IMG/VR virus record: IMGVR_UViG_3300021255_003500
Span: 9,962-73,961 of that record
Reading direction: 5' to 3' (one strand)
DNA from: a virus
Lineage: Duplodnaviria > Heunggongvirae > Uroviricota > Caudoviricetes
DNA length: 64,000 nt
The notes under the pieces were generated by a model. That model searched no databases. It was not told the origin of the DNA and worked only from the letters and a program-made list of their open reading frames with translations. Each line of letters opens with the position of its first letter. The stretch's first letter is position 1. Below, piece by piece: positions 12,186 to 55,440 of this stretch. Position numbers and translations under genes: made by a program.

Positions 12186-13502
12186 TTGGACATCGTAACG
12201 TATATTCTCGCCAAGAAGAAAGGCGGGGGTGGAGGCGGTGGTAGCGGAAGCACAGTCGTTGTGGTCCCGAAGCTTTCGACTGGCACAAAGATTGCCGAAA
12301 TCGAAGTGGATGGATCCAACAACAGTCTGTTTGCGCCATCACCTGGCCTCACCAAAGTCGAGGGCGAACGGCTTGACATCGGCGATATCGGCGGACTGGA
12401 TGTGCCGATTGACGATACTGCCGGCTATGACGCCACAGACAAAGCCTGGAGCGCTGATAAGCTGACACGCGAGCTTGCGAACAAGCAGGACAAGCCTGCC
12501 ACTGCCGGTGTTGCCGGGCAGGTGCTGGGGCTGAATGAACAGCTCCAGCCCGTATGGACAGACGGAGGCAGCGGCGGAGCGGACATTGACGATACCGCAG
12601 GCGCCGGTACAACAGACAAGACGTGGAGCGCGAACAAGCTGACCACAGAGTTCGGCGGCGTGCACAGCGTGCCCACAGGCGGCGCTTCCGGTCAGATTCT
12701 GTCCAAAGCCAGCGGCACGAACTACGACACCCAGTGGGTGGACAGTGTTGCGCTGCTGCAGAACGACGAGGGTTTCTTCTCTCTGATCAGCAACATGCCG
12801 GTTGCTTCCGATAATATTGATGACACTGCCGGGGACGGCGATGTCGACAAGACCTGGAGCGCGGATAAGCTGGCGTCAGAGCTTTCCGGCAAGCAGGAAG
12901 CCGCTGCCAATACAGGAACTTCCGGACAGATCCTGAGTCTGAACTCACAGCTGAAACCGGTATGGATCAACAACACCGGCAGCAGTGCAAGCATCGACGA
13001 CAATGCCGGTGCCGGCATCACCAACAAAGCCTGGAGCGCGAACAAGCTGACCAATAAGTTTGGCGAAGTACACAGCGTTCCTACCGGTGGCACTACCGGG
13101 CAGGTGCTGGCTAAGAACAGCAGCACAAATTATGACGCCACATGGACTGACGCTGTCGAGGTAGTCTCCAACGAAAGCGGCAAGTATACCATTGTTGGCA
13201 ATGCGCCAATCACCGGCAGTCTGATCGACGACAATGCTGGGGATGAAGATACCGGTGTCACATGGAGTGCCGACAAGCTGGTAGACGAGTTTGCTTCCAA
13301 GCAGGATCAGCTGCCGAGCGGTGGCACAACCAATCAGGTGCTGGCCAGAGATGCCAATGGTAATCTCACATGGATTGACAAGGTGAGTGTCACATCTAAT
13401 CTGACTACCGGAGTGCAGATTGCCGCCATCCGTGTTGATGGAACGCTGACACGGATTTATGCACCCGCTGGCGGGTCAATTGAGGTGGTGAGGCTGGCAT
13501 GA
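12186..13502 (+). CDS. Tail-fibre protein with six repeats of about 45 aa (IDDTAGxGxTDKTWSADKL...GQVLxLNxQLxPVW).
   Basis: TTG start with AAGGAGGG RBS. Internal repeats read from the sequence. Gly-run linker after the N-terminus. Confidence 0.6.
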   Translation: MDIVTYILAKKKGGGGGGGSGSTVVVVPKLSTGTKIAEIEVDGSNNSLFAPSPGLTKVEGERLDIGDIGGLDVPIDDTAGYDATDKAWSADKLTRELANKQDKPATAGVAGQVLGLNEQLQPVWTDGGSGGADIDDTAGAGTTDKTWSANKLTTEFGGVHSVPTGGASGQILSKASGTNYDTQWVDSVALLQNDEGFFSLISNMPVASDNIDDTAGDGDVDKTWSADKLASELSGKQEAAANTGTSGQILSLNSQLKPVWINNTGSSASIDDNAGAGITNKAWSANKLTNKFGEVHSVPTGGTTGQVLAKNSSTNYDATWTDAVEVVSNESGKYTIVGNAPITGSLIDDNAGDEDTGVTWSADKLVDEFASKQDQLPSGGTTNQVLARDANGNLTWIDKVSVTSNLTTGVQIAAIRVDGTLTRIYAPAGGSIEVVRLA

Positions 13503-26085: not shown

Positions 26086-26110
26086 TAACCAACTCCTTTG
26101 CAAAGATAAG

Positions 26111-26194
26111 CGCGGTGTGAAGGATTTGAACCTTCGGAGCCAACGGCTCAACGGTTTTCAAGACCGCCGCAATCAACCGCTCTGCCAACACCGC
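26111..26194 (-). tRNA. tRNA-Ser (anticodon UGA). Class II tRNA with a long variable arm and G73.
   Basis: GCGGTGT / TTGGCAGAGCGGTTGATTGC / GCGGT-CTTGAAA-ACCGT / variable arm GAGCCGTTGGCTC / GGTTCAAATCC. Confidence 0.8.
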
Positions 26195-26200
26195 AAAGGG

Positions 26201-26285
26201 CGTGGAGTAGAGGATTTGAACCTCTGGAGGCTTCCACCTCGACGGTTTTAGAGACCGCTGCAATAAACCGCTCTGCCAACTCCAC
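26201..26285 (-). tRNA. Amber suppressor tRNA (anticodon CUA). It is a tandem paralog of tRNA-Ser(UGA), with a long variable arm and discriminator G73.
   Basis: GTGGAGT / TTGGCAGAGCGGTTTATTGC / GCGGT-CTCTAAA-ACCGT / variable arm GAGGTGGAAGCCTC / AGAGGTTCAAATCCTCT / ACTCCAC-G. The loop CT-CTA-AA gives anticodon CUA. Confidence 0.8.
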
Positions 26286-26539
26286 GTAAAAAACAGCCCG
26301 AATGCTTTCGCTTCACCACAAAACTACTCGCATATTTACGTAGGGGTTCGGGCTTGTCGACCCCTGCCGGTTTGTCAGTTCCGGCAACTGGTACCTTTGT
26401 CGCATGGTGGTGCATCATGCGGTAGGCGTACAGTTCCTGCGGGGAACATCCCCGCTTCAGATGGACCCGGACCTTTCGGTCAGCCCAGACATATGCCCCG
26501 AGCGCTACTTTCCTGATCAACGGATAGTTTTACAGGGCA

Positions 26540-40887: not shown

Positions 40888-42395
40888 GCAGCATTCTCCT
40901 TTTCTGTTAACTCGTGCAATGTAAACTCGTCCAGATAACAGTCTTCCTTGTCAGAGATCAGAGTTCTGTGTCCTCCATGGAAGGCATAGCGCTTGGCCTT
41001 ATGCCACTTCTTCAGAAGGATGAACTGACCCTGTTTGAGCCCGCTGTCCGCGTAAGCTCGCTTGGTCATCTTCATTGTGCCGCTGACACCACGGCGCACG
41101 TTGTACAGCTTCAGCCGCACGCCATAGAGATCGTCCAGCTCCTCCACAAAGTACAGGTTGGAATCCGCATAAGGATCAAAGCTGGAGCAGCGCATGACAT
41201 ACATATTCTCTGCGGACAGGATCTCTTCGATTGGCAGCGGAAAGTCGTCCATCTTCGCTTCCATATCCGTCAGCGCAGAAAGGCGCTTGGTCTTCGTCTT
41301 CTCGGACAGAGTCTTGGTCAGCTTGGATGCGCCGTTGTAGTATTCATCGAACAGCTTCATCAGCTTTCCGCTTTCTCCATAGTCGGAGAAGTACCCGAGC
41401 TTGATCAGCACAGCGATCTGCCGGGTATTGACAGACGTATTGTTCTGCAGATAGTAAAGCACCTGAATAAAGCTGTCAAAGTATTCCCTGCCAGCCTGAT
41501 ACAGCGCTTCCGCAGCTGTCGCAGAGATGAACTTGATGGAATGCAGGCTCTGGGAGATGGTCTTGGCAGACTTGTTGACCAGCCAGTCGCGGTTGTCCTC
41601 GCCGAAATGTCCCGGTGTGACCCGGATTCCCAGATACCTTTTCATTTCCCGGATGATCAGGGCGATCTTTTCCTTGTTGCCCTTCTCTGTGTACAGCTTG
41701 AGCATGGTCACGTAGAATTCGTAGGGATAATAGGCTTTCAGCCAGGCCGCGTACAGAGAATCACAGGCCATGCTGAAAGCATGAGCGGCACAGAACATAT
41801 AGCTGGCTGCGTCGTTGATGATCGTCCAGATCTTATCGACGATGTCCGCAGCTTCCTGATCAGTCGCTCCTTCCTCTTCCTTCAAGCGCTTCGTAAAGCC
41901 TTCCTCGAAACGCTGGCGGAAGGAAGCGACCTTGTCCGCCTTCTTCTTCTTAATGGCCTTCACACAAACATACGCATCGGCAGGAGGGATATTAGCAGCT
42001 TGCAAAACGTGTAAAATCTGTTCATCGTAGAGTAAAAACGAATCTGGTATCTCTTTTGTCTGCAACAGTTTATCCAGAGAAGGAATACCATAGTCAAATC
42101 TGTTTCTGGAAATAAAGGTTTCCAGCATGGACTTGAAGCCAGGTCGTACAGCAGCTACGAAAGCAGCCAGTTCCACCACGTTCTTCGGTTTATACCGCAT
42201 GACCCGTTCGGTGGTCTTCTCCTTTTCACACTGATTCAGACCCAGGGTGAAGCCGTATTCGTACAGCTGCCAGACCTTCGGGTCATCCTTCACCTTCTCC
42301 AGCAATTCGTCCACCGGCATCACCGGCTGACCGATCGCTTCAAATGCTGCGGCAATGGTCTTGACGACATCGACGCGCAAGTAATCCAATGATAC
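40884..42395 (-). CDS. dnaE: DNA polymerase III alpha (DnaE-type), exon 2 (C-terminal part).
   Basis: Motif MFCAAHAFSMACDSLYAAWLKAYYPYEFY corresponds to the DnaE FNKSHSAAYA...WLKAHYP region. The exon boundary at 42395/42396 is inferred from the omega-G and reading frame. Confidence 0.7.
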   Translation of the reverse strand, partial: VSLDYLRVDVVKTIAAAFEAIGQPVMPVDELLEKVKDDPKVWQLYEYGFTLGLNQCEKEKTTERVMRYKPKNVVELAAFVAAVRPGFKSMLETFISRNRFDYGIPSLDKLLQTKEIPDSFLLYDEQILHVLQAANIPPADAYVCVKAIKKKKADKVASFRQRFEEGFTKRLKEEEGATDQEAADIVDKIWTIINDAASYMFCAAHAFSMACDSLYAAWLKAYYPYEFYVTMLKLYTEKGNKEKIALIIREMKRYLGIRVTPGHFGEDNRDWLVNKSAKTISQSLHSIKFISATAAEALYQAGREYFDSFIQVLYYLQNNTSVNTRQIAVLIKLGYFSDYGESGKLMKLFDEYYNGASKLTKTLSEKTKTKRLSALTDMEAKMDDFPLPIEEILSAENMYVMRCSSFDPYADSNLYFVEELDDLYGVRLKLYNVRRGVSGTMKMTKRAYADSGLKQGQFILLKKWHKAKRYAFHGGHRTLISDKEDCYLDEFTLHELTEKENAA

Positions 42396-43420
42396 CCTCG
42401 GTTTCCCGATATTTATGAGGGGTTTAGACTATCTCTTCATCCACTAGGGATGTGTGGCACTTCGACAACAAGAGTTTCACTTGCTGTCTACTTCCTTCCG
42501 GAATAGTCGTTACACCTTACTCCTACTGGAGTCTTGGCACGGTATTAACATGCAGCATAGCAACAATTTCATTTGTTCTTTGTGCAATATCTTCATCAAA
42601 TCTGATTTCAAACAGAGGGATGTGATGCTCAGCACAAAACGTTCGTTTCAAAGGATCTGTTATCTCTCTTTCATATGTTCCAAATTCTGGATAATACGGA
42701 TCGACACGGTAATGTTGAATGCCTTGCATTTCAATCGCCGCAATTATGTGATTGTCAGTATCCAATATTTGGAAATCAAACAATGGGTATGTCCCATTAG
42801 GAGTTTGTAGTTCTTCATGTCTCTTATTTTGTTTGAAACGAATGTTGTTTTGCTAGAGTATCTCTCCGATAATCTGTTCTCCTCTGCTTTTCACACAACC
42901 GCAGCTTTGTGTTTTACCGGAACGCAGTTGCCAACCTTCTACGACAGCCTGATTACCACAATCACAAACACAATCCCACAAGATTTTATGCTGTCCTGCG
43001 CTGGTTATATTTGTTCCATGATATCCTGTAACTGTCAGTTTTCCAAAACGCAAACCAGCCATATCCCGGATAGGTTTATGAAAGTTTTCTTTTTGCTGGC
43101 AACCACAAGAAACTGTAGTCTATTGACGAAGACTCTGCCCAGAAACAACAGTCGTATTACCACAAACACATTGGCACATCCACATTGTTCTGGGTTTCCC
43201 GCTTGGTAAAATGTGATCTGGAGCACGGTATAAAACCGTAAGCCTCCCAAATTGTTTACCGGTTAAGTCTTGAAACTTAGGCATCATACCACCTCCTAAC
43301 ATCAATATGATATTGTTATGCTGTTTAGTCTTTACCGTTAGCGCACATAAGTGCACACCCTACATGTGTAGGTTCACCACATTATCCTATCCATATTGCT
43401 ATGGCAGGGGCCAATTATTT
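42396..43420 (-). mobile_element. Group I intron (IA2, T4 td-like) interrupting dnaE, with an ORF inserted in the P6-loop position.
   Basis: R-like AACGACUAU and S-like AAGAGAUAGUCU elements form P7. A P8 helix and the 5' GGCC/P2/P3-like AACGUGGUAAACC region are present. Homologous to the second copy at 52137..52404, with compensatory helix changes. Confidence 0.65.
42517..43293 (-). CDS. Intron-encoded putative homing endonuclease. It has tandem Zn-ribbon modules (FGRLTV...W.C.C.CGN...SCGC, twice) and a C-terminal Vsr/DUF559-like PD-(D/E)xK region. It contains three in-frame TAGs (43120, 42853, 42523).
   Basis: Track ORFs 43120..43356, 42853..43062 and 42523..42783 all end in TAG and share one frame. 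Readthrough joins them. ATG at 43293 with RBS AGGAGGTG. Confidence 0.5.
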
Positions 43421-51377: not shown

Positions 51378-51408
51378 GCATCAAAAAACAGGAGGGATGG
51401 CCTCCTGT
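51378..51408 (-). terminator. Rho-independent terminator on the minus strand (CAGGAGG-GATGG-CCTCCTG followed by a T-run).
   Basis: Hairpin plus TTTTTTG on the minus strand, after the stop of gene 51408. Confidence 0.5.
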
Positions 51409-52136
51409 TATCCGGCCTTCTTCCGAAGGCGCTGCTTGTATTCCCGCCAGGTCTTCTGCCGGTAAAGCTTCTGGCATTCCGGACACCGGAGCTGACGATT
51501 GTTCTTTCGATCCAGGATCTTGCCGCAGTCCACGCAGTTGAACAGCAACTGACCGCCGCTCTTGAAGTTCTTGCAGGCATGATCCGCACACCAGATGGGT
51601 GTCGCCGCACCGCAGTCCGGACAGATCCGGCAGGCGATCAGGTTCTGTTCCAGCGTCCGCAGGGCAATGTTCCCGAAAACCCGCCAGAACATCTGTTTAT
51701 GGGCGTTCTTGGCAATGCCTTCCTCATTAAACAGATGGGTGACAATGGAAGGATAGACCGCTTCTAAGGAACCATACCGATGAATCAGCTGCTCCGAGAT
51801 CTGATCCCGGATAAAGTCATAGCCGATGGAGGTATTGCGTTCCGCCGCGTCCATCTCCTCCGAGACGATGATCTGGTTCGCCCGGTTGGTGTTGTCCATG
51901 CCCTCGAACAGCAGCACCGCATCTCCATTGAACGCGAAAGGCTTCGGCGGCAGCATCATACTGATGTTGAATGGCGCTACCCCTGCCAGGTTCATGTTGA
52001 TATTCGGAATGTCGTCGAACTTGGCGCAGATCCGGTTCATGGTGGAGTTGTTCGGCTGCTTTACCTTGCGCAGCACCTGTCCACCGGGTGCCAAATGTCG
52101 CCCATTTCTTGAGTATTTGAAGAAAAACCTTTCTAC
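51408..52136 (-). CDS. Exon 2 of an intron-split gene of unknown function with C-terminal multi-Cys Zn ribbons.
   Basis: Long ORF in frame with the codon immediately after the intron omega-G (GUA at 52134-52136). The track start at TTG 52094 is probably an artefact. Confidence 0.5.
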   Translation of the reverse strand, partial: VERFFFKYSRNGRHLAPGGQVLRKVKQPNNSTMNRICAKFDDIPNINMNLAGVAPFNISMMLPPKPFAFNGDAVLLFEGMDNTNRANQIIVSEEMDAAERNTSIGYDFIRDQISEQLIHRYGSLEAVYPSIVTHLFNEEGIAKNAHKQMFWRVFGNIALRTLEQNLIACRICPDCGAATPIWCADHACKNFKSGGQLLFNCVDCGKILDRKNNRQLRCPECQKLYRQKTWREYKQRLRKKAG

Positions 52137-52404
52137 CCTCGGTTTCCCGATATTTATAAGGGGAGTAGACTATATCTTCATCTGTATAACAGATGCGTGG
52201 CACTTCGAAGTACCGAATTTCACAGTACTTCTACTCCATAAAGGATAGTCGTTACACCTTACTCATTGCTGAGTCTTGGCACGGTATTGACTTGCGCTAT
52301 GAGAGCGTTTAGTGTTTTACCGTTAGCACAGCATTGCTGTACACCCCATATGTATGGGTTCACCACGTTATCTTATATCCTCACGGATATAAGGCCCTAT
52401 TCTT
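52137..52404 (-). mobile_element. Compact group I intron (td-like, about 268 nt, no internal ORF).
   Basis: About 170 nt of the 3' core and about 90 nt of the 5' part are shared with the dnaE intron. UAACGACUAUCCUUUAUGGAGUAG and GAAGAUAUAGUCU closely match the T4 td P7/P3/P8 region. P1 covaries (exon GCCU/intron GGGC here, versus GGCU/GGCC in dnaE). Confidence 0.6.
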
Positions 52405-52548
52405 AAGGCATTTGTCCATTCTTTCCACCAACCAGCTTCGAAATGAACTTATTGATCGCAGGATATTGTTCGTAAGAGTTGATCACGCCAGACTTTGCAC
52501 CATCAATCCCTTGCTACTGTATGTTTCCATACAGAGTAGACTGTATCA
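52405..52548 (-). CDS. Exon 1 (48 codons, one in-frame TAG at 52513-52515) of the intron-split gene. It is preceded by a 3-codon mini-ORF (MSL) whose UGA stop overlaps this exon's AUG (AUGA).
   Basis: ORF MIQSTLYGNIQ(TAG)QGIDGAKSGVINSYEQYPAINKFISKLVGGKNGQMP ends exactly at the inferred 5' splice site. Upstream RBS AAGGAGAGA. Confidence 0.4.
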
Positions 52549-52591
52549 TAGACTCATGGAGTCTCTCCTTGTCAGTCGTTCGGGCGCACTA

Positions 52592-53278
52592 TCAGTTGGC
52601 GCCACGGGATTGCCTTGCTCGTGTATTGTGGTGATTAGCTGCACAATACTCATCCCATCCTTCTACTTCAACGAAGCGCCAGGAACGATTGCTTCTTATT
52701 GCGTTGATGTTTGCACGAGAGATGTTGTATTTTTCAGCTAAATCATCCCATGATATATTAGCCATAAGATCCTTTTTGATTTCTGCTACTTGGGTTGCTG
52801 TAAGTTTTGTTGTTTTCATTGGTTCTTCGTTGAGAATTTTATGAATTCTGGTCGCAATCATTTTATCGCTCATCCCTTCCGGGCGTTTTTTGCCAAGACG
52901 AGTACGCGACATTTTGGCTTTCGTTTCTTCGGAAGCTTTCTTTCCAGTATTTAATCGACGATTCAGTTCACCGAGTTCTTTGCGTCTGTATTCCGGCAGC
53001 GGGACGCCGTGTGCTCCAGCTCCTCCGTCGGCGATGTTACAACAATGCCCAACTTCGCGAGCTTTAGCAATGTATTCAATTTCTAAATCGTCTAATAAGC
53101 TTTCGTCTTCAACTGATTTTAATACTGAAAATTGAAAAGCTTCTTCTCCATACTTATTATACGAAGATTGCAACCATTTGTTATCATGCTGGTTAGTTCT
53201 TAACTTCCAACGATGAAAACAATAGCGTTTTTCAAAAGACTCTCTTGTCTGACCAACATAAACCAAACCAGAAATCAA
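52592..53278 (-). CDS. GIY-YIG homing endonuclease with a C-terminal NUMOD/HTH DNA-binding domain.
   Basis: ISGLVYVGQTRESFEKRYCFH matches the GIY-YIG motif. C-terminus has TKLTATQVAEIKKDL...SRANINAIRSNRSW. Confidence 0.7.
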   Translation of the reverse strand: MISGLVYVGQTRESFEKRYCFHRWKLRTNQHDNKWLQSSYNKYGEEAFQFSVLKSVEDESLLDDLEIEYIAKAREVGHCCNIADGGAGAHGVPLPEYRRKELGELNRRLNTGKKASEETKAKMSRTRLGKKRPEGMSDKMIATRIHKILNEEPMKTTKLTATQVAEIKKDLMANISWDDLAEKYNISRANINAIRSNRSWRFVEVEGWDEYCAANHHNTRARQSRGAN

Positions 53279-53418
53279 GTTTCGGATCTCATAAATGCCT
53301 ATCTAATTACGATAGATATCTTCGTTGACGAAATGCATCATATGATCACCACCTTTCATTTGTAATACACGAGTTTAGGGTTTCCCCGTTATTCGGAGTT
53401 CAATAACATGTCGCCATG

Positions 53419-55440
53419 TTAAGGGGCAATTATGTTTACCTGATTATTATAGTAGCAAAGTAATCCACTGGCACGGATCTCATCTTCGCCGATGGTATTA
53501 CGGTTCCAGAGCTTGCACAGATTGTTGGAGATCTGCCCGATACCGGAACAGTCATGGGCACGCTGCACCGCCTTGTACATCATGAGGCTGTCGATTTTCT
53601 CCGGCTTCGCTGCGTTCGCGTCGTAGAACAGCGGGATGATATTAAACTTCTCGACGTTGCGCTTCGCTGCCTGCACGATGACATTCTCGACAACCACATG
53701 CAGCTGGTCCCCATCGCAATCGAATTGCAAAATTCTGCTGATGAGATCATGCACGCTAGTATAGACGCCATTGGACCGCAGCCAGGAGTATACATCGGAC
53801 CGGTGCGTAATGCGCCGGACCGCGTGTTCCATGGACAGATGAGGAGACCGGAGGCAGTCGGCCTCGTCGAAGGCCTGGTAAACCCGGCAGGCGATCTCTC
53901 CGTTCTGCAATAAGCCAGGCGGATGCTCCATGTGCAGGAACCAGAACTGACAGGCTGCATACATATCCGGGATGACGAACATACGCTTATTCCGACAGAC
54001 AATGCGGCCAGATTGGGCGTCGTAGGTCCAGCGGCGCTTGATATCCCGCAGAGTCTGACGGCAGTATCCATCCCGCAGCAACGGCGGATACAGGCTCAAA
54101 GCCCTGCGAAAGGGCTGATCGCTGTAGACATCCGCTCGCAGCACCCGCAGCATGGTCTCCGGATCCTTGGCGATATCATGAATCTTGTTCCAGGTCTTCT
54201 GTGTGAAGCGGTCGATCTCCTCATCCGTGAAGTCCACCAGAGTTTCCAGGAACTGGTAATTCATGTAAGCGTCCGGGATATAGGTTTCCTCATAGTTGGT
54301 ACGGGCGAAGGTCCAGCCGCATTCCCGGAAGCAGCGCTTGTAGTGCTCCCAGTTGTCATAATATTTCCAGAGTTTCAGCTGGGACTTGGTGAAGATCACC
54401 CGGATATCCTCTGCGATCAGATCATGATAATCTCCCCAGACATCCTTGATCAGCGGACGCTCGATGCCATGCTCCCGGCAGAAACGCAGGAAGTCAAAGG
54501 GCGTCAGCAGACCTTTCAGGTAGAGACCACGGACCATGAAGTTAAAATCGCAGACAGAGGGCAGCATCATTCCGACACCGTCACAATGGTTGATCATGAC
54601 GGTGCGCTCGCCGATCTCCTCCGTATAGTCCGGGTTGATGAACTTCATCATGCCGGTGACAGGGGCTTCAAAGTCCGGGATCACGATGCAGCGGTCGATA
54701 TCCAGCTCCGGCCAGGGATCCGTAGCGCCGGTGCACAGAGCGGTATAAGCCAGCAGCTTCGCCGCGTTGATGCCGCCGTGAGCGTTGATCACATCCCAGG
54801 ACATACCGCCTTCGAAATGGGTATGGATCTTCTCCCAGGCGTCCACGGAGATGAACTGCACCTTGTCCGTCCGCAGCTGGCCGGCAGACGCCGTGAGGAA
54901 ACGGTAACGCTTCATCTGGATGGTGCCATCCGGGTGCTCGATGGGGATGACGAAGCCGTCCACGCACATCTGGCGCAGGATATCCGTGGACTTCCAGCGG
55001 ATGATCACCTTATCGAAGGTGACCTCATCCTTGCCGATGCCCAGAGTGCGGCTGAAATCAGAGAAGAACTCTGCGATCCTTCTGGACTGGCGGAGGGTAT
55101 TCCACGCAATGCCTTTGGGCATTACAGGCTTTTCGTCTTCCCAATTGAGGAAACGGGTATCTACCACGTTCGCCACCCGCAGGACCCTGGCCTTGCCATC
55201 GTGCTTCTGGATCTCCGTTTCCAGTTCCAGCTGCTTGGACTTCTTCCGGGTGAACAGCTGCTCCCGAAGCTCCGATTCCATGTCTTTTTTGCCGGCAGCC
55301 TTCGCTTCTTCCTCCGCGTTCTTCAGATCTTCAATGGCTGCCATGATCTCCGTATAGAGATCATATTCCTTCTTGGTGAAGAAATCCGTGGTAGAGAAGG
55401 TACAAAGACGGTACTGCTGGCTCAAGTAGGATTTTAACAT
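53419..55440 (-). CDS. YonO-like non-canonical single-subunit RNA polymerase (two-barrel, DxDGD type).
   Basis: ILQFDCDGDQLHVVVENV resembles the beta-prime NADFDGDQ catalytic motif. 673 aa. Confidence 0.55.
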   Translation of the reverse strand: MLKSYLSQQYRLCTFSTTDFFTKKEYDLYTEIMAAIEDLKNAEEEAKAAGKKDMESELREQLFTRKKSKQLELETEIQKHDGKARVLRVANVVDTRFLNWEDEKPVMPKGIAWNTLRQSRRIAEFFSDFSRTLGIGKDEVTFDKVIIRWKSTDILRQMCVDGFVIPIEHPDGTIQMKRYRFLTASAGQLRTDKVQFISVDAWEKIHTHFEGGMSWDVINAHGGINAAKLLAYTALCTGATDPWPELDIDRCIVIPDFEAPVTGMMKFINPDYTEEIGERTVMINHCDGVGMMLPSVCDFNFMVRGLYLKGLLTPFDFLRFCREHGIERPLIKDVWGDYHDLIAEDIRVIFTKSQLKLWKYYDNWEHYKRCFRECGWTFARTNYEETYIPDAYMNYQFLETLVDFTDEEIDRFTQKTWNKIHDIAKDPETMLRVLRADVYSDQPFRRALSLYPPLLRDGYCRQTLRDIKRRWTYDAQSGRIVCRNKRMFVIPDMYAACQFWFLHMEHPPGLLQNGEIACRVYQAFDEADCLRSPHLSMEHAVRRITHRSDVYSWLRSNGVYTSVHDLISRILQFDCDGDQLHVVVENVIVQAAKRNVEKFNIIPLFYDANAAKPEKIDSLMMYKAVQRAHDCSGIGQISNNLCKLWNRNTIGEDEIRASGLLCYYNNQVNIIAP

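Follow-up and report, generated by a model that had tools for sequence, protein, structure and literature searches.

Three open reading frames (ORFs) of 673, 228 and 228 amino acids that seem unrelated follow one another in a phage genome, and the question is what connects them. The window analyzed here is a 64,000-nt stretch of the IMG/VR virus record IMGVR_UViG_3300021255_003500 (Caudoviricetes), a phage known from metagenomes alone. Its ORF list gives a 673-aa frame at 53419..55440 that contains DCDGDQL and ends soon after ...YYNNQV, then an endonuclease frame, and downstream a frame at 51408..52094. Between the last two, the original prediction had placed a compact group I intron that lacks an ORF and belongs to one family with an intron in a dnaE-like gene of the window, and this element was found again. 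It spans 52405..52128(-) (intron 2 below) and very probably is a self-splicing ORF-less group I intron of IA type, the second of two in a three-exon gene for a 941-aa two-barrel RNA polymerase. Intron 2 belongs to an ordinary class of phage elements; what is new is its insertion site. In this gene model the three frames represent one polymerase and an intron endonuclease, and the databases hold a fragment, since the exact 673-aa read-through frame is on record as protein P0002.

The exon borders follow from uninterrupted homologs. All features of the polymerase locus are on the minus strand, and residues are numbered as in the spliced window protein. When 55440..53438, 52508..52406 and 52127..51408 are joined, a frame of 2826 nt results, whose 941 codons are followed by the only stop. 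When about 5.8 billion proteins were searched, more than 100 homologs of 920-960 aa without interruption came up; the closest one, P0001, shares 74% identity across 100% of the length. In a MAFFT alignment the two junctions, ...YYNNQV|IDGAK... and ...GGKNGQMP|FFFKYSRNGR..., are gapless against 57 of 57 uninterrupted full-length homologs. The contig of P0001 (L002) is syntenic, with genes for the polymerase, then SSAP, SSB and primase-helicase, and runs continuously through both intron sites; exon 2 is identical to it at 75 of 103 nt. The same interrupted arrangement is present in independent metagenome contigs. Exon 1 encodes the catalytic motif D574-x-D576-G577-D578, while invariant residues are found in exon 2 (I669, D670, A672, K673, P684, G696, P702) and in exon 3 (F705, N710, R712 and C871...C920). 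Both insertion sites, which are only 103 nt apart in the same gene, adjoin such residues (N665 N666 | I669 D670 A672 K673 and P702 | F705 N710 R712). Insertion beside invariant residues is the usual pattern of homing introns.

Table 1. Coordinates of the split polymerase gene and its introns in the window, with intron positions in the polymerase gene family (residue numbers of the spliced window protein)
Feature	Position	Strand	Details
Exon 1	53438..55440	-	2003 nt; codons 1-667 + GU of codon 668; 3' end ...AAU CAG GU
Intron 1	53437..52509	-	929 nt; group I; GIY-YIG endonuclease ORF inside
Exon 2	52508..52406	-	103 nt, internal; G of codon 668 + codons 669-702; IDGAKSGVINSYEQYPAINKFISKLVGGKNGQMP
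Intron 2	52405..52128	-	278 nt; ORF-less group I, IA type
Exon 3	52127..51408	-	codons 703-941 + TAA stop; 5' end UUU UUC UUC (FFFKYSRNGR...); Cys-rich Zn-ribbon-like 3' end
Intron 1 P1		-	GGU|AA with UUGCC
Intron 1 P2		-	part of complete core
Intron 1 P3	53398-53395 with 52568-52565	-	CUCC/GGAG
Intron 1 P4	53389-53385 with 52608-52604	-	ACGGG/CCCGU
Intron 1 P5 + P5a	P5a 53373-53364 with 52627-52618	-	P5a 10 bp; endonuclease ORF in P5a loop
Intron 1 P6		-	part of complete core
Intron 1 P7	52577-52573 with 52543-52539	-	GACUG/CAGUC
Intron 1 P8	52564-52559 with 52555-52550	-	AGACUC-CAU-GAGUCU
Intron 1 P9	52534-52528 with 52523-52517	-	CUGUAUG-GAAA-CAUACAG
Intron 1 tail	omega-G at 52509	-	8 nt, UAGCAAGG
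GIY-YIG homing-endonuclease ORF in intron 1	52592..53341	-	250 codons from ATG at 53341
Intron 2 P1	52409-52404 with 52399-52394	-	GCCU|UA with UAGGGC; U52406 pairs with G52396 (U-G wobble)
Intron 2 P2	52392-52385 with 52380-52373	-	UUAUAUCC-GUGA-GGAUAUAA
Intron 2 P3	52367-52362 with 52201-52196	-	CGUGGU/GCCACG; covaries across family
Intron 2 two extra hairpins between P3 and P4	52358-52345, 52340-52328	-	
Intron 2 P4	52323-52318 with 52286-52281	-	
Intron 2 P5/P5a			present in model
Intron 2 P6	52280-52278 with 52258-52256	-	plus P6a
Intron 2 P7	52250-52246 with 52172-52168	-	pseudoknot
Intron 2 P7.1	52245-52243 with 52237-52235	-	
Intron 2 P7.2	52231-52223 with 52215-52207	-	
Intron 2 P8	52195-52190 with 52184-52179	-	CAUCUG/CAGAUG
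Intron 2 P9/P9a	52162-52136	-	hairpin, GAAA loop
Intron 2 tail	omega-G at 52128	-	UAGAAAGG
Family copy in dnaE-like gene	42387..43420	-	1034 nt (probable borders); ORF in P5 region
Intron in polymerase family	residues 188/189		1 locus: L145
Intron in polymerase family	residues 534/535		3 loci: L151, L186, L055
Intron in polymerase family	residues 574-576 (inside DxDGD)		8 loci: L144, L147-L150, L024, L062, L009
Intron in polymerase family	residues 668-670		8 loci: L003, L039, L140, L149, L024, L062, L082, L016
Intron in polymerase family	residues 702/703		window only

The folding of intron 2 was derived by hand as a model of 77 pairs, which was mapped onto an alignment (A1) of 23 compact ORF-less relatives from viral contigs, made with MAFFT blind to structure. 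Standard pairs are formed in 85.5% of the alignment cells, against 35-41% when the partners are slid by 1-3 columns, and covariation scores 0.532, compared to about 0.10 in the slid control. Changes on both sides are seen in 60 of the 77 pairs (shuffle mean 47.3), and none of 500 shuffles reached any of the observed measures. More reliance can be placed on the slid control and on how many distinct pair types occur than on the shuffles. Among the individual helices, P3 is 95.7% paired with compensatory changes in all four of its four pairs and four pair types per position, and P4 alternates between GC, UA and AU; P4, P6a, P7.1, P7.2, P8 and P9a all covary. P7 is paired in 100% of cases with one compensatory change, P7.1 in 98.6%, and P7.2 in 97.8% for its outer and 72% for its inner part, with many compensatory changes. 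The low value for P1 (52%) is expected because P1 depends on the exon of each intron. ViennaRNA gave a minimum free energy of -89.3 kcal/mol (z -5.2; none of 200 shuffles folds as well), and the minimum free energy structure recovers, by that program alone, every nested helix of the model.

Part of this covariation had been described before between intron 2 and the dnaE copy. Both P2 hairpins exist as reported (CCAUA-GCAA-UAUGG in the dnaE copy, UUAUAUCC-GUGA-GGAUAUAA here), and the P1 guide of each intron is fitted to its own exon (GGCU/GGCC in the dnaE copy, GCCU/GGGC here). The helix that had been named P8 also covaries (GACAGCAAG/CUUGUUGUC versus GAAGUACUG/CGGUACUUC), but it lies between P7 and the 3' strand of P3 and therefore is P7.2; the real P8 is CAUCUG/CAGAUG. 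The presence of P7.1 and P7.2 at this place assigns intron 2 to subgroup IA, which has these extra pairings between P7 and the P3 3' strand as features (PMC3984707). The Rfam assignment of P3, AUGCUGUGC with GCCACGCAU, was not adopted, as it fails in one relative (L003) whereas CGUGGU/GCCACG covaries family-wide. Nor are the two extra hairpins between P3 and P4 regarded as a new architecture, because P3.1 is already recognized and named as an optional element of group I introns (PMC3873408).

A permissive Infernal scan with Rfam models, a check suggested with the original prediction, matched RF00028 over its full length (model positions 1-253) at 52146..52415(-) with 42.5 bits, the E-value being 2.2e-9 in an 801-nt scan and 4.4e-8 in a 16-kb scan. 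Scanning at gathering level gave no intron call and reported only tRNAs and one small RNA, so that a default Rfam scan misses intron 2. The shortfall in score arises because the model treats the P3-P4 inserts and P7.1/P7.2 as insertions. A hidden Markov model (HMM) of the family itself scores intron 2 at 225 bits, all family-invariant columns of A1 are present, and the omega-G, G52128, directly precedes UUUUUC of the 3' exon. With intron 2 as query, nhmmer gave 129 matches, and a scan for the core motif found at least 118 viral contigs; the family is common among viral contigs.

Several points weigh against the proposed assignment. The 42.5 bits are below the curated gathering score of 50 and by the rule of Rfam are not an automatic call. 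The shuffle control overstates significance because the A1 sequences are mutually related. P10 of intron 2 is weak (U-A, U/U mismatch, U-A, U-A, U-G). A second occupied copy of site 702/703 was not found among the about 90 polymerase loci examined, and as no other genome was found to carry an intron at exactly this position, homing at this site is unsupported. Furthermore, we infer the splicing rather than observe it. Polymerases split between genes exist in other phages. Intron 2 could be a decayed remnant that does not splice, and the polymerase a pseudogene or a set of separate fragments (673 aa and about 228 aa), which would agree with the low Rfam score and with the lack of an endonuclease ORF in intron 2. 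We consider this highly unlikely, as every core helix is intact and all family-invariant columns are kept. Exon 2 has no start codon, yet its frame and invariant residues are preserved along with its nucleotide identity to L002, invariant residues are kept right at the exon 3 junction, and independent metagenome contigs show the same interrupted arrangement.

The weakness of P10 means that the 3' splice site is positioned chiefly by protein homology and by analogy to further members of the family. The original prediction joined the exon to GUA at 52136, and the Rfam alignment stops at 52146. Splicing after G52137 or after G52146 would keep the reading frame, and the sequence up to GGGUA is common to the dnaE copy. 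However, the GUA join adds the residues VER, and the Rfam end adds KPRVER, neither of which occurs in any of the 57 homologs; 52128|52127 is the only border that gives a gapless fit. In addition, 52146..52136 consists of the covarying 3' strands of P9a and P9, the latter ending with G52136. An 8-nt tail ending in G follows P9 in five of five introns that were placed by reading the host protein (introns 1 and 2, the dnaE copy, L001 and L003); since the group of L076 has a 10-nt tail, the 8-nt length is a tendency rather than a rule. There is accordingly only a very slight chance that either upstream acceptor is used, and the preferred 3' site is 9 nt downstream of the proposed GUA, after G52128. 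The stretch read as PLINIGKPRV in both copies, for which no coding meaning was confirmed, is the P9/P9a hairpin with its GAAA loop. It is indeed shared with the dnaE copy and would be spliced out. The 5' splice site was placed properly after the U of GCCU but was numbered one base off (52405 instead of 52406). The suspicion that the TTG start at 52094 is an artefact of the ORF caller was correct, this position being internal to exon 3.

Upstream of intron 2 the sequence had been interpreted differently, as a two-exon gene starting at an AUG, translationally coupled to a 3-codon mini-ORF behind a strong Shine-Dalgarno sequence, and spliced to GUA 52136 to give a 291-aa protein, possibly a polymerase accessory. 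The AUG (at 52549, not 52548), the overlapping AUGA and the stretch AAGGAGAG do exist at 52570..52541, the GUA join is in frame, and a tRNA with anticodon CUA encoded in the window might read the in-frame TAG. However, the 41 nt upstream of exon 2 (52549..52509) form the 3' terminus of a further group I intron, intron 1, aligning in Rfam with P7', P9 and tail, and the in-frame TAG (52516..52514) sits in this tail. The core of intron 1 is complete, and checking it helix by helix showed all helices to be complementary. The supposed ribosome binding site AAGGAGAG (52570..52563) contains the P3' strand GGAG, the mini-ORF AUGAGUCUAUGA (52557..52546) is made up of the loop and 3' strand of P8 together with J8/7, and the AUG is located in J8/7 just before P7'. 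The idea of mini-ORF coupling is thereby refuted. Homologs continue upstream unbroken, with ...YYNNQV|IDGAK... following 668 residues of the same protein, and the GUA join with its additional VER is already contradicted by their alignment. The two-exon gene can therefore hardly be maintained. In place of a 48-codon first exon there is an internal exon of 103 nt, the predicted product has 941 aa, and since that product is the polymerase itself, exon 3 supplies its C-terminal quarter rather than an accessory protein.

Intron 1 gave only weak 3'-end matches with Rfam (18-21.9 bits), in which GAUACAGUCUACUCUGUAUGGAAACAUACAG, with its end at 52517, aligns with the 3' end of the model; this partial match falls inside the formerly proposed first exon. 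A P10 between GAUUG and UAAUU is possible. The resemblance of intron 1 to the family of intron 2 is distant (nhmmer E 0.13 and 0.92). A homologous intron occupies the same site in L140 (67% identity over 946 nt), and for intron 1 the pattern expected of homing is thus seen. The L140 intron carries the P9 of the other family. The endonuclease ORF of intron 1 matches the homing endonuclease family phrog_314 (E 1.6e-29), with weak matches to Pfam GIY-YIG and NUMOD3, and at its 3' end it extends into P5a', P5', P4' and part of P6. The frame is interrupted by a single TAG (53305..53303) immediately ahead of the GIY motif, whereas the L140 homolog has no in-frame stop.

In the proposed mechanism, which follows established group I intron chemistry, the primary transcript would fold into the P1-P9 core. 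The internal guide GGGC, in a helix extended by UA/UA, would pair with the last bases of exon 2, GCCU, leaving the splice-site U52406 in a U-G wobble. Exogenous guanosine could then attack after U52406, and the freed 3'-OH of exon 2 would attack after the omega-G, G52128, joining ...AUG CCU to UUU UUC.... The same two steps would excise intron 1 and connect CAG GU with G AUU GAU. The short exon 2 would take part in both reactions, its first five nucleotides (GAUUG) possibly forming P10 with intron 1 and its last four (GCCU) forming P1 with intron 2. The spliced product should be shorter by 929 + 278 nt, with predicted junctions ...AAUCAGGU|GAUUGAUGG... and ...AAAUGCCU|UUUUUCUUC..., and should direct production of the 941-aa protein. 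Unspliced RNA cannot yield the polymerase because a stop occurs within a few codons of each 5' splice site and exons 2 and 3 lack a start codon of their own. Skipping of exon 2 was rejected, as the sequence reads out of frame when exon 1 is joined straight to exon 3.

The relation of intron 2 to the intron of the dnaE-like gene was confirmed. Both ends of that intron have counterparts in the about 280 nt preceding ORF 51408..52094, as seen in direct repeats (52134-52182 with 42393-42441, 92%; 52245-52295 with 42503-42553, 86%; 52192-52223 with 42449-42480, 75%) and, for the 5' parts, by nhmmer (E 1e-5). The two introns are 77% identical over the 5' core and 83% over the 3' half. A recent duplication of the dnaE intron is rejected because relatives from outside the window are at least as similar, L076 and L012 having 87-88% identity to intron 2 in the 3' half. 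The borders of the dnaE intron were derived from P1 (GGCU|AA with UUGGCC), a 5-bp P10 (GAUUA with UAAUU) and the reading GYLKA|DYLRV. Judging from these pairings it probably ends at ...UCAUUG|GAUUAC, at 42387, 8 nt past P9 and 9 nt downstream of GGGUA, and not at GUA. The guide tracks the exon also in L003, L024 and L062 (GUGAU/GUCAC). A search of the phage GenBank collection gave 45 nt of intron tail in Clostridium phage CS266P3 as the sole match. This phage (L001; OP172777.1, 24226..24836) has a family intron with an I-HmuI-like HNH ORF, unannotated in the record, between two 'hypothetical protein' coding sequences that read as one dnaE-like gene (KLP|DIDVDF). In another contig, L049, three family introns are present within 6 kb.

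Sense-strand ORFs wholly inside intron 2 are limited to one 35-codon GTG frame. An endonuclease-sized ORF was looked for in intron 2 and not found, and mobility would thus need an enzyme in trans or reverse splicing. Intron 2 may be mobilized in trans, as in collaborative homing (PMC3984707), or be fixed.

The polymerase genes themselves are frequent targets of introns. Relatives are encoded at no fewer than 568 viral loci, of which about 90 were examined for introns; the gene is uninterrupted in 67 of these, L002 being among the empty sites. Introns occur at five positions, four of them besides 702/703 (Table 1). The gene family thus appears as an intron hotspot, with recurrent insertion within DxDGD (e.g. 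DADFD|GD in L009) and at NNxV(I)|D, and L009 carries at least three introns in one polymerase gene. As a second case for 702/703, L024 was rejected since its intron is at the VI|D site, and P0110, P0118, P0063 and P0073 are N-terminal truncations at contig edges that are uninformative on this site. A family with introns at five positions, including the catalytic DxDGD, provides a useful set for studying how introns choose their sites.

On the basis of its predicted structure, the host protein belongs to the single-chain two-barrel RNA polymerases of QDE-1/RDR type. Sequence searches of the PDB with the polymerase core gave nothing significant, whether a single protein or a 36-sequence profile was used, and a fold search was needed. 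With an AlphaFold2 model (pLDDT 87.5, pTM 0.80), Foldseek found RDR2 (7w82, E 5e-17) and QDE-1 (E about 1e-13) with probability 1.0 and a TM-score of about 0.43 over 800-950 columns; bacterial beta' came next, weakly. D574, D576, G577 and D578 are invariant in 36 homologs (D574 C D576 G577 D578 in the window). The window protein scores 20.9 bits against Pfam PF05183 (RdRP), compared to a cut-off of 23.8, and 24 of the 36 homologs match this family at E <=0.01, the best at 3.2e-13. The C-terminus (51408..51700(-), residues ~860-925) contains invariant cysteine pairs (C871, C874, C900, C903, C917, C920). This region has a weak, non-significant likeness to Zn ribbons of the RPA12/TFIIS type (E 0.2-0.4), and model confidence is low there.

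The in-frame TAG of the intron 1 endonuclease is not unique, as two were read by eye in the ORF of the dnaE intron (within 42527..43286). The tRNA with anticodon CUA, labeled tRNA-Pyl by ARAGORN, is encoded at 26198..26286(-) beside a tRNA-Ser(UGA) at 26110..26194(-), which it closely resembles, sharing the D arm and having a variable arm that is long. The likeness suggests an amber suppressor of serine type. A published phage survey reports recoding as TAG-to-Gln and TGA-to-Trp only, and TAG-to-Ser recoding, if true, would be new with respect to the phage surveys consulted. A quick count for genome-wide TAG recoding gave no clear signal beyond the intron ORFs, and the use of TAG elsewhere in the window looked limited. 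A more speculative scenario, which we consider unlikely, is that the QDE-1/YonO-type polymerase gene in gut phages of this kind is a favored landing pad for one widespread sub-threshold intron family with P3-P4 hairpins. The polymerase would then depend on two close splicing events and the endonucleases would be gated by a serine-type suppressor tRNA (TAG-to-Ser), giving timed control of transcription and intron mobility. The tRNA cluster also includes a DUF3800-XI RNA motif of Rfam (26441..26487(-), 60.6 bits; gathering score 37.8). Elsewhere in the window, at 12408..13282(+), there are five copies of a 59-nt unit, 63-75% identical and with spacings alternating between 177 and 231 nt, a pattern suggestive of a large gene with a repeated protein domain.

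Intron 2 leaves the understanding of how group I introns work unchanged. Its relevance is that split genes in metagenomic phages are under-called, because a family found in at least 118 viral contigs scores below Rfam gathering and its ORF-less members are invisible to endonuclease-based searches. Group IA introns of phages include those of T4 td, nrdB and sunY, of the SPO1 DNA polymerase, and the three introns of Twort orf142. Intron 2 resembles these in the P1-P9 core, P7.1/P7.2 between P7 and P3', the U-G at the 5' splice site and the terminal G, as well as in the interruption of highly conserved codons of an essential gene, the occurrence of ORF-containing and ORF-less forms, and more than one intron per gene. 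It differs in that the host gene encodes a single-chain polymerase of QDE-1/RDR type, in the two extra covarying P3-P4 hairpins and in the score below Rfam gathering.

Gut crAss-like phages, known from metagenomes, have core genes that several group I introns divide, and they also possess suppressor tRNAs and in-frame stops (Yutin et al. 2021, PMC7886860). The same combination of a split core gene, several group I introns, a putative suppressor tRNA and in-frame stops is found here. However, their introns were recognized via endonuclease domains, a procedure that the ORF-less intron 2 would escape. The comparison does not show the present genome to be crAss-like; it has a polymerase of ~940 aa with SSAP, SSB and primase-helicase genes as neighbors. 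In Agate phages, an early-gene intron carries an endonuclease ORF with stops readable only by the phage suppressor tRNA, and a delay of the endonuclease was proposed (Borges et al. 2021, bioRxiv 10.1101/2021.08.26.457843). The similarity lies in the in-frame TAG of the GIY-YIG ORF in intron 1 and the tRNA with anticodon CUA, and it applies to intron 1 and to the intron of the dnaE-like gene but not to intron 2, which has no ORF. The codon differs as well, being TGA read as Trp in Agate phages and TAG here, with a suppressor resembling the neighboring tRNA-Ser.

For the host protein, a full-text literature search combining 'group I intron' with 'YonO' brought up nothing relevant. YonO of the SPbeta Bacillus prophage belongs to the class of single-chain two-barrel RNA polymerases (PMC5467207); the window protein is likened to it by class, with a sequence identity to solved relatives of only 12-14%. 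The window polymerase shares with YonO and QDE-1/RDR a single chain of ~100 kDa and the DxDGD loop (PMC5467207, PMC2919709), and the fold predicted for it agrees with those of QDE-1 and RDR2 across 800-950 columns.

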